Under the pieces are notes generated by a model. The model had not been told where the DNA came from and ran no database searches. It saw only the letters and a program-made list of their open reading frames with translations. A stretch of DNA of 64,000 nucleotides. It comes from Escherichia coli (GTDB lineage Bacteria > Pseudomonadota > Gammaproteobacteria > Enterobacterales > Enterobacteriaceae). Location of the stretch: the NCBI RefSeq assembly GCF_044647545.1, contig NZ_CP172818.1, one strand, 5' to 3'. A program made the position numbers and the translations under genes. Numbering within the stretch: position 1 is the stretch's first letter; each line of letters begins with the position of its first letter. Of the stretch, positions 5,833 to 64,000 are shown piece by piece.

Positions 5833-6333
5833 ATGCGCATAGTTACCGCTGCCGTCATGGCCTCAACGCTGGCAGTCAGTTCATTAAGCCACGCTGCTGA
5901 AGTCGGTTCAGGCGATAACTGGCATCCGGGTGAAGAACTTACGCAGCGCAGTACGCAGAGCCATATGTTCGACGGCATAAGTTTAACCGAACATCAGCGT
6001 CAGCAGATGCGAGATCTTATGCAACAGGCCCGGCACGAACAGCCTCCTGTTAATGTTAGCGAACTGGAGACAATGCATCGCCTTGTCACCGCAGAAAATT
6101 TTGATGAAAACGCTGTGCGCGCACAGGCAGAAAAAATGGCGAATGAGCAAATTGCTCGTCAGGTTGAGATGGCAAAAGTCCGCAACCAAATGTATCGCCT
6201 GTTAACGCCGGAGCAGCAAGCGGTTTTAAACGAGAAACATCAACAACGAATGGAGCAGTTGCGCGACGTGACGCAATGGCAAAAAAGTTCATCGTTGAAG
6301 CTATTGAGTAGTAGCAACTCACGTTCCCAGTAG
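5833..6333 (+). CDS. cpxP: periplasmic Cpx pathway inhibitor/adaptor CpxP
   Basis: ORF 5830..6333; start at ATG 5833 ([24 protein letters not shown]...) gives 166 aa. Confidence 0.95.
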
Positions 6334-6336
6334 TAA

Positions 6337-6400
6337 ACCCTGTTTTCCTTGCCATAGACACCATCCCTGTCTTCCCCCACATGATGTGGGGGTTTTTTTT
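6337..6400 (+). ncRNA. cpxQ: candidate CpxQ sRNA (cpxP 3' UTR-derived)
   Basis: 3' UTR of cpxP ending in hairpin cccccacatgatgtggggg + T8; CpxQ is known to be processed from this UTR; exact 5' end not determinable here. Confidence 0.5.
6374..6400 (+). terminator. rho-independent terminator of cpxP
   Basis: Perfect hairpin cccccacat/atgtggggg followed by T8. Confidence 0.85.
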
Positions 6401-6481
6401 ATCCTCAATTTGCCTGCTGCTTAATGTATTGCAGATGATTTGCTTCCGTTATACTACCGTCAGTTGATAGCGGGAGTATTT

Positions 6482-7384
6482 ATGAATCAATCTTATGGAC
6501 GGCTGGTCAGTCGGGCGGCGATTGCTGCGACGGCGATGGCTTCGCTGCTATTGCTGATTAAAATTTTTGCATGGTGGTATACCGGGTCGGTGAGTATTCT
6601 CGCCGCGCTGGTGGATTCGCTGGTGGATATCGGCGCGTCGTTGACGAATTTACTGGTGGTGCGATATTCCCTGCAACCTGCCGACGATAATCACTCGTTT
6701 GGTCACGGTAAAGCTGAGTCCCTCGCGGCGCTGGCGCAAAGTATGTTTATCTCCGGTTCGGCACTATTCCTGTTTTTGACGGGTATTCAACATCTGGTAT
6801 CTCCAACACCGATGACAGATCCAGGCGTCGGGGTTATCGTGACAATTGTGGCGCTAATTTGTACGATTATCCTTGTCTCGTTTCAGCGGTGGGTGGTGCG
6901 CCGGACGCAAAGCCAGGCGGTGCGGGCTGATATGCTACATTACCAGTCTGATGTTATGATGAACGGCGCAATTCTGCTGGCGCTGGGGTTGTCCTGGTAC
7001 GGCTGGCATCGCGCCGATGCTCTGTTTGCATTGGGAATCGGCATCTATATTTTATATAGCGCGTTACGCATGGGATATGAGGCGGTACAGTCATTACTGG
7101 ATCGCGCATTGCCTGATGAAGAACGGCAAGAAATTATTGATATCGTGACTTCCTGGCCGGGTGTTAGCGGCGCTCACGATCTTCGCACGCGGCAGTCAGG
7201 GCCGACCCGCTTTATTCAGATTCATTTGGAAATGGAAGACTCTCTGCCTTTGGTTCAGGCACATATGGTGGCGGATCAGGTAGAGCAGGCTATTTTACGG
7301 CGTTTTCCGGGATCGGATGTGATTATCCATCAGGACCCCTGTTCCGTCGTACCCAGGGAGGGTAAACGGTCTATGCTTTCATAA
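6482..7384 (+). CDS. fieF: ferrous-iron/zinc efflux pump FieF (cation diffusion facilitator)
   Basis: ORF 6440..7384; start at ATG 6482 ([25 protein letters not shown]...) gives 300 aa. Confidence 0.95.
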
Positions 7385-7564
7385 TCAGTATAAAAGAGAG
7401 CCAGACCCGCATTTTGTGTATAAAATACCGCCATTTGGCCTGACCTGAATCAATTCAGCAGGAAGTGATTGTTATACTATTTGCACATTCGTTGGATCAC
7501 TTCGATGTGCAAGAAGACTTCCGGCAACAGATTTCATTTTGCATTCCAAAGTTCAGAGGTAGTC

Positions 7565-8527
7565 ATGATTAAGAAAATCGGTGTGTTGACAAGCGGCGGT
7601 GATGCGCCAGGCATGAACGCCGCAATTCGCGGGGTTGTTCGTTCTGCGCTGACAGAAGGTCTGGAAGTAATGGGCATTTATGACGGCTATCTGGGTCTGT
7701 ATGAAGACCGTATGGTACAGCTAGACCGTTACAGCGTTTCTGACATGATCAACCGTGGCGGTACGTTCCTCGGTTCTGCGCGTTTCCCGGAATTCCGCGA
7801 CGAGAACATCCGCGCCGTGGCTATCGAAAACCTGAAAAAACGTGGTATCGACGCGCTGGTGGTTATCGGCGGTGACGGTTCCTACATGGGTGCAATGCGT
7901 CTGACCGAAATGGGCTTCCCGTGCATCGGCCTGCCGGGCACTATCGACAACGACATCAAAGGCACTGACTACACTATCGGTTTCTTCACTGCGCTGAGCA
8001 CCGTTGTAGAAGCGATCGACCGTCTGCGTGACACCTCTTCTTCTCACCAGCGTATTTCCGTGGTGGAAGTGATGGGTCGTTATTGTGGCGATCTGACGTT
8101 GGCTGCGGCTATTGCTGGTGGCTGTGAATTCGTTGTAGTTCCGGAAGTTGAATTCAGCCGTGAAGACCTGGTAAACGAAATCAAAGCGGGTATCGCGAAA
8201 GGTAAAAAACACGCGATCGTGGCGATTACCGAACATATGTGTGATGTTGACGAACTGGCGCATTTCATCGAGAAAGAAACCGGTCGTGAAACCCGCGCAA
8301 CTGTGCTGGGCCACATCCAGCGCGGTGGTTCTCCGGTGCCTTACGACCGTATTCTGGCTTCCCGTATGGGCGCTTACGCTATCGATCTGCTGCTGGCAGG
8401 CTACGGCGGTCGTTGCGTAGGTATCCAGAACGAACAGCTGGTTCACCACGACATCATCGACGCTATCGAAAACATGAAGCGTCCGTTCAAAGGCGACTGG
8501 CTGGACTGCGCGAAAAAACTGTATTAA
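7565..8527 (+). CDS. pfkA: 6-phosphofructokinase I
   Basis: ORF 7469..8527; start at ATG 7565 ([25 protein letters not shown]...) gives 320 aa. Confidence 0.97.
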
Positions 8528-58580: not shown

Positions 58581-60904
58581 GAAATTTTCATCTACTAAAT
58601 TTGATCACCAACCAAAAATAGCACTTCCATATTCATTAATACCGTAAAATCAAGACCGACACGTTTACCAACAACACCAGATATTCAAAACATCAAAAAA
58701 AACATGGCAGAAGTAATTGAAAATAACCAAGGACGAAATCTCGGCACATTTAAAATGATTAATGCAATCGGATATGGGAGAATTAACATGCCATATTAAA
58801 TATTCTCGAAAAGTAGTCCGCTGCTTATCTAAAAGATCATTTCTCTTCAGAAGAAATTTTCAGCGATAACAGGAGCATGGAAGAATAATGGCAACTCCTC
58901 TCTTGAATGTAGAAGGGGACAAGACCCGTCAAGAGGTTAGCTATAACAGACAATAATATAATAATGAAAAATATTAAAGCAAAGTTTGATATTGACCAGA
59001 ACAAAATTTCGGTACCTTACAATAAACACCGTAAGCGGATATTGCCAAATCAGAGAGCGCACAATAAATGAACCGAAGAAGACTACGCAAATCATCAGAA
59101 AAATCAATTTAATCCAAAACTAATTCACCGCGATGCACCCCGTATCCAAAACATTTATCAATTCTGAAGAAAGAAGCATACTCGCGACGACCCCCAACCA
59201 AGAGGTCGGGCACGGAAGACCAGGAGAGGCGTCATAAAAGTATAAAGATAAAACACCAAATATACCAGAATATCAACGTATTAAGTGCGCTTCTAACGAA
59301 CATCTGATGCATGATATCCACAACCCCCGGACCCCGATCGAAGAGGCCCGTGAAGAGAAGAGCAAGACGACACATCCTCTTTAAGATGAAACATGCGAAG
59401 CGCGCTGTAACCCAGAAATGAATCAGTTTTGTTCGGCGAAGACTAAAAGACCGATCGGAACCGGAAATCTAAAACCTTACTCGGAATACAAGCAGTTGAT
59501 CGAAGAAAAGTATATCGATTTTATACCGAAGATGATTAAACCGCAGGCAATAATATCGGGATGAAACAAAATCCCGATCATGACACGCATCATCACCTAA
59601 CTCCCACGCACAGCCCTTCAGATATAACCACTGAGGATTATCCCCGTTCTTGAAGGTAGATCTCACGCTTCCAAACATACGGAATGTTATCGGCGGATTC
59701 ACAATATATGAAGTCATCCCGAATACCTGCCGCGCGAGGAAAACATATCACCAAGGCAAGCAATTAAGCGAAGAGCAGCCTATCAACAAAAATCGCACGA
59801 CGAATATCCATATAACCCGGATTACCTCCACGTACACAATCCAATATGGCATATCTTGGAAAGGACATAACAGTTCGCATAATCATTCACTTCAAACGCA
59901 TCTAATCCATTCATTCCCCTAAATATTTAAAAATGGATGCCGAACTTTCAACTACAGGAGCACAAGGAATAGCAACAAAAAAGGCTTGATCCGACACTAA
60001 TACCTGGCGCATCAATGAAGGTGGGAATCATCAATTCCATCGACCGTTCCTCAGTAATCCTTCAATCAAAAAGATCGTCGAAAGATACGAATGACCCCGA
60101 CTGAATTCCCCTCTCACCACTCGGAGATGGCACTTTTCCGTACACGGAATAACAGAACGCCCAACCAGTATCTGGATAGACAGCTTATCCACAAGAATAC
60201 TTAAAGACCCAAAAATAGAATTCGGGGCATTAATCCGTGCAGCAACAAAAAAACTGCAATCGATTAGCCGTATTATTACAATAACTATCGGTTTATTAAT
60301 TATGGAGGCGACAGTTAATTCCCCCGACCGAACCTAACACAGACTGGTAGGCGAAAAGAAAATTGGAGAGGAAGGATTATCGGAGATTTAACTCAGCGAC
60401 TGTTATCTCTGCGGTTATTCTGTCCCCATCGTTTTTAATAACGCATTTCGCTTTTTTCCTACACCCATTTGTCCCACTAATAGTTTTGGGCGGGGGCCTT
60501 TTATTCTCGGCAGCGATGCAGACATGAACAGAAATGATTAATGCTGATCGCCACGCTATTTAGACGCCGACCGGGCGGAGAAGCGGAGAACCGCCATTTA
60601 TTCCGGTGGGAGGAAGACCGAACAACGAACGGTATGGGCAGAAAGAACCCCCCCCACGGCCCAGGGGGTATTTTACACATCAATCGTGATCTGCCGCGCG
60701 CATGCCCCTGCAACACCTGTATTGAGATAGCTGCCGTTGATCTGGCTCGAAATATTGTCACACCTCGATTCCTTCCCCCATTAACTATTTTCACCCGAAA
60801 CTACGACCCGAAACCGTAAAACTATTCTTTAACCATTACACGTCTTCGTCAATCCCCCCCACCCACTTACTTTATCTCAACCTTTCTGCATTTTCCGGAA
60901 ACCA
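58581..60904. other. anomalous ORF-poor, A-rich intergenic insertion between argH stop and oxyS
   Basis: argH-oxyS spacer is 2385 bp here versus under 0.1 kb as I recall for K-12; no ORF of 60 aa or more in 58581..59468 or 59923..60500; plus strand about 40% A; right boundary approximate. Confidence 0.6.
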
Positions 60905-60965
60905 GGGGATTGCAGATTAACAAAATGGCTTCCATCGCCGGGATTCAAAACTTTGGCAAAAAAAA

Positions 60966-61074
60966 GCGGATCCTGGAGATCCGCAAAAGTTCACGTTGGC
61001 TTTAGTTATTCGAGTTGAGAAACTCTCGAAACGGGCAGTGACTTCAAGGGTTAAAAGAGGTGCCGCTCCGTTTC
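60966..61074 (-). ncRNA. oxyS: OxyS oxidative-stress small RNA
   Basis: Reverse complement reads GAAACGGAGCGGCACCTCTTTTAACCCTTGAAGTCACTGCCCGTTTCGAGAGTTTCTCAACTCGAATAACTAAAGCCAACGTGAACTTTTGCGGATCTCCAGGATCCGC with terminator hairpin and U-run, matching OxyS as recalled. Confidence 0.9.
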
Positions 61075-61169
61075 TGTGAGCAATTATCAGTCAGAATGCT
61101 TGATAGGGATAATCGTTCATTGCTATTCTACCTATCGCCATGAACTATCGTGGCGATGGAGGATGGATA
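61075..61169. promoter_or_regulatory. oxyR/oxyS divergent promoter region containing the OxyR binding site
   Basis: Position between divergent oxyS and oxyR; contains gatagggataatcgttcattgctattctacctatcgccatgaactatcgtggcgatgg with ATAG/CTAT-type OxyR contacts; exact footprint not resolved. Confidence 0.6.
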
Positions 61170-62087
61170 ATGAATATTCGTGATCTTGAGTACCTGGTGG
61201 CATTGGCTGAACACCGCCATTTTCGGCGTGCGGCAGATTCCTGCCACGTTAGCCAGCCGACGCTTAGCGGGCAAATTCGTAAGCTGGAAGATGAGCTGGG
61301 CGTGATGTTGCTGGAGCGGACCAGCCGTAAAGTGTTATTCACCCAGGCGGGAATGCTGCTGGTGGATCAGGCGCGTACCGTGCTGCGTGAGGTGAAAGTC
61401 CTTAAAGAGATGGCAAGCCAGCAGGGCGAGACGATGTCCGGACCGCTGCATATTGGTTTGATTCCCACGGTTGGACCGTACCTGCTACCGCATATTATCC
61501 CGATGCTGCACCAGACCTTTCCAAAGCTGGAAATGTATCTGCATGAAGCACAGACCCACCAGTTACTGGCGCAACTGGACAGCGGCAAGCTCGATTGCGT
61601 GATCCTCGCGCTGGTGAAAGAGAGCGAAGCATTCATTGAAGTGCCGTTGTTTGATGAGCCAATGTTGCTGGCTATCTATGAAGATCACCCGTGGGCGAAC
61701 CGCGAATGCGTACCGATGGCCGATCTGGCAGGAGAAAAACTGCTGATGCTGGAAGATGGTCACTGTTTGCGCGATCAGGCAATGGGGTTCTGTTTTGAAG
61801 CCGGGGCGGATGAAGATACACACTTCCGCGCGACCAGCCTGGAGACGCTGCGCAACATGGTGGCGGCAGGTAGCGGGATCACTTTATTGCCAGCGCTGGC
61901 TGTGCCGCCGGAGCGCAAACGCGATGGGGTTGTTTATCTGCCGTGCATTAAGCCGGAACCACGCCGCACTATTGGCCTGGTTTATCGTCCTGGCTCACCA
62001 CTGCGCAGCCGCTATGAGCAGCTGGCAGAGGCCATCCGCGCAAGAATGGATGGCCATTTCGATAAAGTGTTAAAACAGGCGGTTTAA
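61170..62087 (+). CDS. oxyR: LysR-family oxidative-stress regulator OxyR
   Basis: ORF 61140..62087; start at ATG 61170 ([44 protein letters not shown]...) gives 305 aa. Confidence 0.97.
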
Positions 62088-63470
62088 GCCATTTAGCGCA
62101 GCTACCCGATAGGCTTCCGCCATCGTCGGGTAGTTAAAGGTGGTGTTGACGAAGTACTCAATAGTGTTGCCGCCACCTTTCTGTTCCATAATCGCCTGAC
62201 CGATATGAATAATTTCGGCAGCGCGCTCGCCAAAGCAGTGAATACCCAGAATCTCTTTTGTTTCCCGATGGAACAAAATTTTCAGCGTGCCCACGTTCAT
62301 GCCGACGATTTGTGCACGTGCCAGATGTTTAAACTGGGCGCGGCCCACTTCATATGGCACTTTCATCGCGGTTAGCTGCTGTTCGGTTTTGCCCACAGAG
62401 CTGATTTCCGGGATGGTGTAAATGCCGGTAGGGATATCTTCAATCAGATGTGCGTTGGCTTCACCTTTCACCAGCGCTTGCGCGGCAATGCGCCCCTGGT
62501 CATAGGCTGCCGACGCCAGGCTCGGATAACCAATCACGTCGCCCACCGCGTAAACGTGCGGCTGTGCGGTCTGATACATGCTGTTGACCTTCAGCTGTCC
62601 GCGACTGTCAGTTTCCAGCCCAATGTTCTGTAACGCCAGCGAATCGGTATTACCGGTGCGACCGTTGGCATAGAGCAGACAGTCAGCTTTCAGTTTTTTA
62701 CCCGACTTCAGATGCATGATCACACCGTCGTCACAGCCTTCGATCTTCTCGTACTCTTCGTTGTGACGAATCACTACGCCACTGTTCCAGAAGTGATAGG
62801 AGAGAGAATCTGACATCTCTTGATCGAGAAACGCCAACAGCCGATCGCGGGTGTTGATCAGATCCACTTTTACATCCATACCGCGGAAGATCGACGCATA
62901 TTCACAGCCGATCACTCCAGCACCATAGATAAGTACATGGCGCGGTTCGTGGTGCATGCTAAGAATTGAGTCGCTGTCGTAAATGCGTGGATGGGTGAAA
63001 TCAACATCTGTTGGATGATATGGACGAGAGCCGCAGGCAATAACAAATTTTTCAGCGGTTAGTGTTTCAACGCTGCCGTCCGGGCAATCCAGCGCCAACG
63101 TATGCTCGTCAACAAAGCGAGCGTTCCCCTGCAATATTTCACAGTGATTACGTTCGTAAAATCCCTGACGCATGCGCGTTTGTTGGTTAATCACGTTATC
63201 GGCATGGTTAAGGATATCGGCAAAAGAAGAGCGGAGCAGTCGGGAATGGTCGCTGTATAGTGGGTTTTGATTAAATTCTATAATGCGGCTGACGGCGTGA
63301 CGGAGAGCTTTCGACGGGATGGTGCCCCAGTGGGTGCAACCGCCGCCAACATTTTGATAACGCTCGATAACTGCGACGCGCGCACCTTGCTTAACCAGGC
63401 CCATTGCAGCGCCTTCGCCGCCGGGGCCGGAACCTATTACTATGGCATCGTAATCGTAGGAATGTGGCAT
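62070..63470 (-). CDS. sthA: soluble pyridine nucleotide transhydrogenase
   Basis: 466-aa [57 protein letters not shown]...; 18-bp convergent overlap with oxyR. Confidence 0.97.
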
Positions 63471-63803
63471 GGTAGGGCTTACCTGTTCTTATACATAAAA
63501 GCAACAGAATGGTAACATTTTATCGCGGGTAAGCCAATTGATCCCCGTCATTTATCTGGCTATATCGTGAGCGGCCTTTGCTTTGTCTGTTTCTTACTTT
63601 TGACCTGAACGTTTTATTGGATTTTTATCGACGATACTCTCCGTTTAAGCGGCAGGTTTCCGTTGTACGTAAAAGAACCGGCCAAAGAATTGCAGTAAAT
63701 ATGTTTTATTGCGTTACCGTTCATTCACAACACTGGAGCAATCCAGTATGTTCATTCTCTGGTATAGTGCCAGCAGTACTTTTGGCAAGGATTCAGACAT
63801 CGT

Positions 63804-64000
63804 GATGGGCGTAAGAGCGCAACAAAAAGAAAAAACCCGCCGTTCGCTGGTGGAAGCCGCATTTAGCCAATTAAGTGCTGAACGCAGCTTCGCCAGCCTG
63901 AGTTTGCGTGAAGTGGCGCGTGAAGCGGGCATTGCTCCCACCTCTTTTTATCGGCATTTCCGCGACGTAGACGAACTGGGTCTGACCATGGTTGATGAGA
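63804..64000 (+). CDS. fabR: TetR-family fatty-acid biosynthesis regulator FabR, N-terminal part; gene runs off the window end
   Basis: Translation from ATG 63804 reads [65 protein letters not shown]; an in-frame upstream ATG at 63747 ([19 protein letters not shown]) is an alternative start. Confidence 0.88.

Follow-up and report, generated by a model that had tools for sequence, protein, structure and literature searches.

The convergent oxyR-sthA junction of Escherichia coli: an 18-bp coding overlap and the transcript ends around it

When two convergent genes leave no DNA between them, where do their transcripts end, and does the shared sequence couple their expression? The question is raised by oxyR and sthA in a 64,000-nucleotide stretch of Escherichia coli DNA (hereafter the window), for which a preliminary description had reported an overlap of their coding ends and had drawn consequences for transcription from it. 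Here we describe the overlap, its conservation among relatives, and the transcript ends on both strands.

Two genes sharing their last six codons

oxyR (61170..62087, + strand) encodes a 305-aa LysR-type peroxide sensor and stops at TAA 62085-62087, while sthA (62070..63470, - strand) encodes the 466-aa soluble pyridine nucleotide transhydrogenase and stops at TAA 62072-62070; both stops lie where the preliminary description had placed them. According to the window sequence and its list of open reading frames, the genes share the 18 bp TTAAAACAGGCGGTTTAA (62070..62087, read on both strands). On the + strand the junction reads ...GTG TTA AAA CAG GCG GTT TAA, which gives the OxyR end ...V L K Q A V stop, and on the - strand it reads TTA AAC CGC CTG TTT TAA, which gives the SthA end ...L N R L F stop. 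The two frames are codon-aligned: within the overlap, every codon of oxyR pairs with exactly one codon of sthA as its reverse complement, and both TAA stops stand opposite a TTA leucine codon of the other gene. Intergenic DNA between oxyR and sthA is zero, and the earlier remark that no space for a terminator exists between the genes is correct.

Comparison with the reference annotation returned the same 18-bp overlap: on 100% identical DNA (NZ_CP033850), RefSeq/PGAP gives oxyR the coordinates 6171-7088 and sthA 7071-8471 within the retrieved locus. Over 61000-64000 the window has 0 mismatches to this RefSeq E. coli chromosome, in keeping with the claim that the arrangement is native. A megablast search with 61000-63600 found the oxyR/sthA region in 5425 of 5426 complete E. 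coli genomes, several of the matches being 100% identical. Both overlapping frames are real protein-coding genes by their RefSeq names, Pfam domains, and PDB matches. Clusters of homologs bear the name OxyR and contain PF00126 and PF03466, the OxyR PDB entries 1I69/1I6A span residues 87-305, and SthA aligns with PDB 9n4y (a soluble transhydrogenase) through residue 466. In RefSeq and in all homologs oxyR starts with MNIRDLEY, at position 61170; an in-frame ATG at 61140, 10 codons upstream of this annotated start, extends the mechanically called ORF to 315 aa. The oxyR-sthA overlap is confirmed as real.

The arrangement is also already known, in that it is annotated, catalogued, and conserved, and it is standard in most enteric bacteria. 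As a feature type, convergent coding overlap is common, and dnaQ-rnhA is the classic convergent overlapping pair. In the E. coli reference genome, 663 adjacent gene pairs overlap, 75 of them convergently (Huvet & Stumpf 2014, PMC4161906). oxyR-sthA resembles the convergent overlapping pairs of that study in being two bona fide opposite-strand genes that share their 3' ends, and in having an overlap that is short, arisen by movement of a stop codon, and kept among relatives. With its codon-aligned antisense frame and stops that are leucine codons of the partner, it differs from them in nothing essential. A run of six shared codons is itself unremarkable, because a codon-aligned antisense ORF continues until the partner uses TTA, CTA, or TCA.

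Conservation of the junction and codon choice

We compared the junction across 80 species loci that encode close relatives of OxyR, drawn from Enterobacteriaceae and Pantoea. Among these Enterobacteriaceae/Erwiniaceae loci the overlap measures 18 bp in 73/80, 27 bp in 6/80, and 9 bp in 1/80. In the six loci with a 27-bp overlap, CAA or CAG replaces the oxyR TAA and the reading frame closes 9 nt later, at a back-up in-frame stop that corresponds in the window to TAG at 62094..62096 (+ strand), the antisense of sthA Leu459 (CTA).

The codons of sthA bear the imprint of these stops. In 72/78 species Leu462 is written TTA or CTA, which read TAA and TAG on the opposite strand, compared with a share of 5.7% at the other sthA leucine codons. 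Leu459, opposite the back-up stop, has the second highest share (45/78), and every other leucine site is at or below 23%. A rare leucine codon is thus kept at residue 462 because it is the antisense of the oxyR stop. Within the junction, conservation is highest in the 18-bp block, which has a mean column identity of 0.959 versus 0.774 for the oxyR-only codons just upstream, and conservation of sthA third codon positions is 0.914 inside the overlap versus 0.791 outside it; this conservation results from the double coding constraint. Common as such overlaps are, the prevalence of the 18-bp length and of TTA/CTA at Leu462 shows that the one at oxyR-sthA has nevertheless been maintained.

The constraint is carried unequally by the two proteins. 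The SthA tail LNGLNRLF* is found in 75/78 species; the OxyR tail is widely variable. Structures of distant bacterial OxyR proteins align only to about residue 290 of E. coli OxyR, and the last ~15 residues are not conserved outside enterics. The final LKQAV of OxyR is an exact antisense reading of the sthA N-R-L-F-stop codons. These comparisons show the SthA C-terminus to be the constrained partner and the OxyR tail to be a poorly conserved appendage.

We also examined more distant junctions, using OxyR homologs and the contigs that carry them. Serratia and Edwardsiella have the 18-bp overlap, and Morganella morganii has a 4-bp overlap, TTAA (locus L085, 3409-3412), in which both stops interlock in a palindrome. 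In Plesiomonas (locus L086) the genes are separated by a 98-bp spacer with a GC-rich hairpin inside it, and in Pragia sthA is absent from the site. On the simplest reading, a spacer between the convergent genes would have been lost within the Enterobacterales, after which oxyR would read into the antisense of the last sthA codons until the reverse complement of an sthA leucine codon supplies a stop. The OxyR tail LKQAV would be the antisense of SthA NRLF-stop because oxyR reads on in this manner. What the present comparison adds to a known arrangement is limited to new details: the rare-codon signature at Leu462, the series from spacer to 4 bp to 18 bp, and a modest covariation in a stem-loop that is described below.

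Several features of the distant loci were recorded along the way. The M. morganii oxyR frame differs from that of E. coli relative to sthA. The Plesiomonas spacer holds a perfect GC hairpin, GCGTGCAGC-N6-GCTGCACGC (hairpins at L086 3352-3374 and 3458-3482), and a terminator-like hairpin followed by UUUUU lies on the sthA strand inside Plesiomonas oxyR, near the codons in which the E. coli sthA transcript ends. Upstream of oxyR in Edwardsiella, Pragia, and Plesiomonas (loci L083, L084, and L086) are divergent genes for a peroxiredoxin-glutaredoxin hybrid and a pyridine-nucleotide disulfide oxidoreductase, not oxyS/argH. In Pragia, where sthA is absent, fabR directly follows oxyR, and BrxR-like and cas1 genes are nearby. 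Two metagenome gene calls (P0001 and P0003, 447-449 aa) contain a 99-100% identical OxyR, one of them with Pfam PF05698; wrong calling or fusion of ORFs on short contigs is the probable explanation.

Transcript ends inside the partner gene

On neither strand did a consensus scan of 60800-63800 find an intrinsic terminator at or near the junction; its one clear hit was that of oxyS, with weak sites elsewhere. Since there is no intergenic DNA, the 3' UTR and terminator of each gene lie inside its partner. The mapping of 3' ends by which the preliminary description had proposed to check the overlap is already published for K-12 MG1655 (PMC7815308), and it covers the sthA end as well as Rho regions on both strands. 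We moved these MG1655 positions to the window by their offset from the sthA stop, the local sequences being one synonymous SNP apart.

The dominant Term-seq 3' end of sthA is at MG1655 4159345 (-), classified as "primary sthA, antisense oxyR" (Adams et al. 2021, PMC7815308), with 78428 and 54987 reads in two conditions (PMC7815308 supplementary file 1). This end corresponds to window position 62025, 45 nt beyond the sthA stop and inside oxyR codons, so that the sthA 3' UTR (62025..62069, - strand) lies wholly within oxyR. A stem-loop, GGCCAUCC-N10-GGAUGGCC (62031..62056, - strand), ends 5 nt before the transcript does. It has an 8-bp GC-rich stem and a folding energy of -15.1 kcal/mol (z -2.6), and it is followed on the - strand by UCUGCCAGCUG / UCUGCC, without a U tract. 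Further downstream, a Rho termination region antisense to oxyR was mapped with bicyclomycin at 4159015 (-), with a Rho score of 5.8 and p 6e-31 (PMC7815308 supplementary file 2). In the window this read-through region (61695..61876, - strand) consists of a C-rich, G-poor stretch antisense to oxyR followed by the peak at ~61695, ~375 nt beyond the sthA stop. On the - strand the C:G ratio is ~1.0 immediately past the stem and reaches 1.5-2.0 only at 61876-61726, 150-300 nt farther along.

This configuration resembles a described class of Rho-terminated mRNAs, which acquire sharp 3' ends after a stable stem-loop without a U tract through exonuclease trimming (Dar & Sorek 2018, PMC6061677). Likewise, the steady-state 3' end of sthA (62025) falls immediately downstream of a stable stem-loop, 5 nt past it and with no U tract. 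A bicyclomycin-sensitive region and C-rich RNA are found farther downstream. sthA differs from the class in that its stem-loop and putative Rho loading region are inside the coding sequence of another gene and also encode OxyR residues. We infer that a Rho-terminated sthA mRNA is protected at its 3' end by the stem-loop at 62031-62056. On this model, the ribosome would leave at each stop, Rho would load on the untranslated antisense RNA and terminate transcription, and exonucleases would trim the sthA transcript back to the stem-loop.

For oxyR the end is more diffuse. PMC7815308 lists no dominant + strand Term-seq 3' end for this gene; its end is a broad Rho region, antisense to sthA, at 4159509 (+), with a Rho score of 5.1 and p 3e-16 (PMC7815308 supplementary file 2), and its position is approximate. 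The peak corresponds to ~62189, 102 nt beyond the oxyR stop. The presumed oxyR 3' UTR (62088..62189, + strand) runs through the last ~34 sthA codons and contains two tandem hairpins, at ~62100-62135 and 62136-62180, the second of which ends in CUGUUCCAU at 62189. These 102 nt fold with -37.6 kcal/mol (z -4.3), a value reached by 0/200 shuffles. The SMRT-Cappable-seq supplements make no mention of either oxyR or sthA.

We considered conservation of the hairpins past the oxyR stop as evidence for a selected structure and rejected it as such. Across aligned species, hairpin 2 is paired at 99.2% on the + strand versus 88.6% on the - strand, and its three glycine codons end in a purine in 1/230 cases versus 23% elsewhere. 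However, in a per-site codon control many other sthA glycine codons are also at 0-5%. The conservation of hairpin 2 was set aside as well, in that its variable sides are third positions changeable by transition only, with zero two-sided changes.

Taking both strands together, the earlier proposal of shared termination within coding sequence stands in one part and falls in the other. Termination does occur within coding sequence, with the sthA end 45 nt inside oxyR and Rho regions inside both genes. It is not shared, as the two ends differ (62025 on the - strand versus ~62189 on the + strand) and no bidirectional intrinsic terminator was seen. The mature oxyR and sthA RNAs would be complementary over ~165 nt (62025-62189).

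The stem-loop at 62031-62056 was examined for signs of selection in 79 aligned species. Three of its 8 pairs have changed on both sides, in 8 cells in total: 5 species carry G-C in place of A-U, 2 carry U-A in place of C-G, and 1 carries A-U in place of G-C. An Asp-to-Asn replacement in OxyR is the price of one of these compensatory changes. None of 500 shuffles reached 8 doubly changed cells (0/500), although the covariation comes from few, partly related lineages and fits either strand equally. Counts of G-U wobble were tried as a strand discriminator and dropped, with 93.7% paired on the - strand versus 94.3% on the + strand and no separation. RNAalifold returned the stem-loop as the sole consensus in 71 Enterobacteriaceae after 8 lineages without it had been removed, a partly circular selection, and did not recover it with all 79 sequences of the 3' UTR or over the full 199 columns. 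Pantoea, Serratia, Edwardsiella, and Morganella lack the stem-loop; since most of these lineages retain the overlap, the stem-loop is not required for it. Thus, the stem-loop is probably selected within Enterobacteriaceae and is not essential to the overlap. RNAalifold also produced a small hairpin at ~62005-62019 (- strand), GCUGCU-CAU-AGCGGC, just past the sthA 3' end. Its changes from CGC..GAG to CGT..GAA in oxyR codons follow clades, for example Citrobacter, and its covariation is probably phylogenetic signal.

We read the locus as an ordinary ancestral tail-to-tail junction of two real genes, each with its 3' UTR and terminator inside the partner, and we give this account as a whole a probability of roughly 80%. 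The contrary view that the overlap is an artefact of annotation, with one gene ending earlier or later, could appeal to the lack of conservation of the last ~15 OxyR residues outside enterics and found no other support. Neither oxyR nor sthA has an earlier in-frame stop, however; both ORF ends are conserved across at least 80 species, SthA homology reaches the last residue, the E. coli OxyR crystal constructs reach residue 305, and the rare-codon signature at Leu462 shows selection for an oxyR stop at exactly this place. We rejected an artefact on the conserved ends, the SthA homology, and the Leu462 signature, and regard its probability as next to nil. Another departure from our reading takes the stem-loop at 62031-62056 for an intrinsic (Rho-independent) terminator, possibly bidirectional, in place of a processing or protection site. 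Its stable 8-bp GC-rich stem would suit such a role, as would the sharp and abundant sthA 3' end, the flanks of the stem (AUUUCGAU following it on the + strand, CGAAAU preceding it on the - strand), and the Plesiomonas hairpin with UUUUU in nearly the same oxyR codons on the - strand. On the - strand, however, the stem is followed by UCUGCCAG and no U tract, the consensus scan is negative there, and a region sensitive to bicyclomycin is located downstream; on the + strand the hairpin precedes the oxyR stop and would be unwound by ribosomes, and no + strand 3' end is listed there. The chance that the stem-loop is an intrinsic terminator is, in our estimate, slim.

The junction could also be a functional convergent excludon, in which transcription of one gene lowers its partner through polymerase collision or through RNase III cleavage of the ~165-nt duplex, coupling OxyR to the NADPH-consuming SthA. 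Expression of oxyR is weak and largely constitutive, which counts against such coupling. In favor of it, 3' regions that are complementary follow from the mapped ends, conservation of the junction is strong, and oxyR-sthA is among 165 convergent excludons of MG1655, seen in at least 50% of 58 transcriptomes (PMC12288877). Like the other pairs that ExcludonFinder collected (PMC12288877), these are neighboring opposite-strand genes with overlapping transcripts, but the defining outcome of convergent excludons is mutually exclusive expression or RNase III processing, whereas the MG1655 entry for oxyR-sthA was made by overlap of RNA-seq transcript coverage alone (PMC12288877). Complementary 3' ends are produced by 276/370 convergent E. 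coli operons (75%), with a mean overlap of 286 nt (Conway et al., PMC4161252); since most convergent operons overlap, transcript overlap here is the rule and no evidence of regulation. The conservation of the junction is explained by the double coding constraint. Literature searches did not turn up any paper that tests interference between oxyR and sthA, or cleavage by RNase III, functionally. We therefore think a functional excludon unlikely, and the transcriptional interference between oxyR and sthA that the preliminary description took the overlap to imply is only an inference, which as written overreached. A stronger version would make the Enterobacteriaceae-specific stem-loop a selected dual-purpose element that, besides coding for OxyR, determines where sthA mRNA ends and how stable it is, with the ~165-nt complementarity tying SthA output (conversion of NADPH to NADH) inversely to oxyR transcription in a true regulatory excludon; this we hold to be quite unlikely.

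Read as an ordinary junction of two genes, the locus has little significance beyond housekeeping, and the window carries the native oxyS-oxyR-sthA locus unaltered. It offers a textbook example of paired genes that constrain each other's codon choice, with a rare sthA leucine codon held by the oxyR stop, of a 3' UTR and stem-loop embedded within the coding sequence of a neighbor, and of Rho termination in place of a missing intergenic terminator. Peroxide sensing and NADPH economy would be linked if the overlap were regulatory.

The locus around the junction

The gene order around the overlap is the native oxyS-oxyR-sthA-fabR arrangement. The OxyS small RNA (60965-61074, - strand) is intact, matching Rfam RF00035 at full length with 139.5 bits; it is divergent from oxyR as in K-12, and its intrinsic terminator lies at 60984-60966. 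The preliminary description held that the arrangement was preserved despite a nearby insertion. Preservation holds, with oxyS, oxyR, and sthA untouched. The neighboring stretch, upstream of oxyS, is not a simple insertion; it is instead a form of a manD/MFS island that varies among strains, with ~65% identity to that island and no ORFs.

Among 5426 E. coli genomes, no near match to this argH-oxyS stretch (58581-60964) was found. Over 89% of its length it can be aligned, at 64.8% identity, with the island of manD and an MFS transporter, which occupies the same site in 139 genomes, some of them with flanks 100% identical to the window. The stretch contains no ORF longer than 97 aa and many in-frame stops, shows a net deletion of 445 nt, and has a GC content of 0.37-0.45. 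Its substitution spectrum is strand-asymmetric and A-biased, with 128 T>A versus 20 A>T changes. The first divergent base is the one immediately following the argH stop, and the divergence ceases 7 nt short of the oxyS 3' end. The stretch looks unnatural or artificially degraded, not like the product of natural decay.
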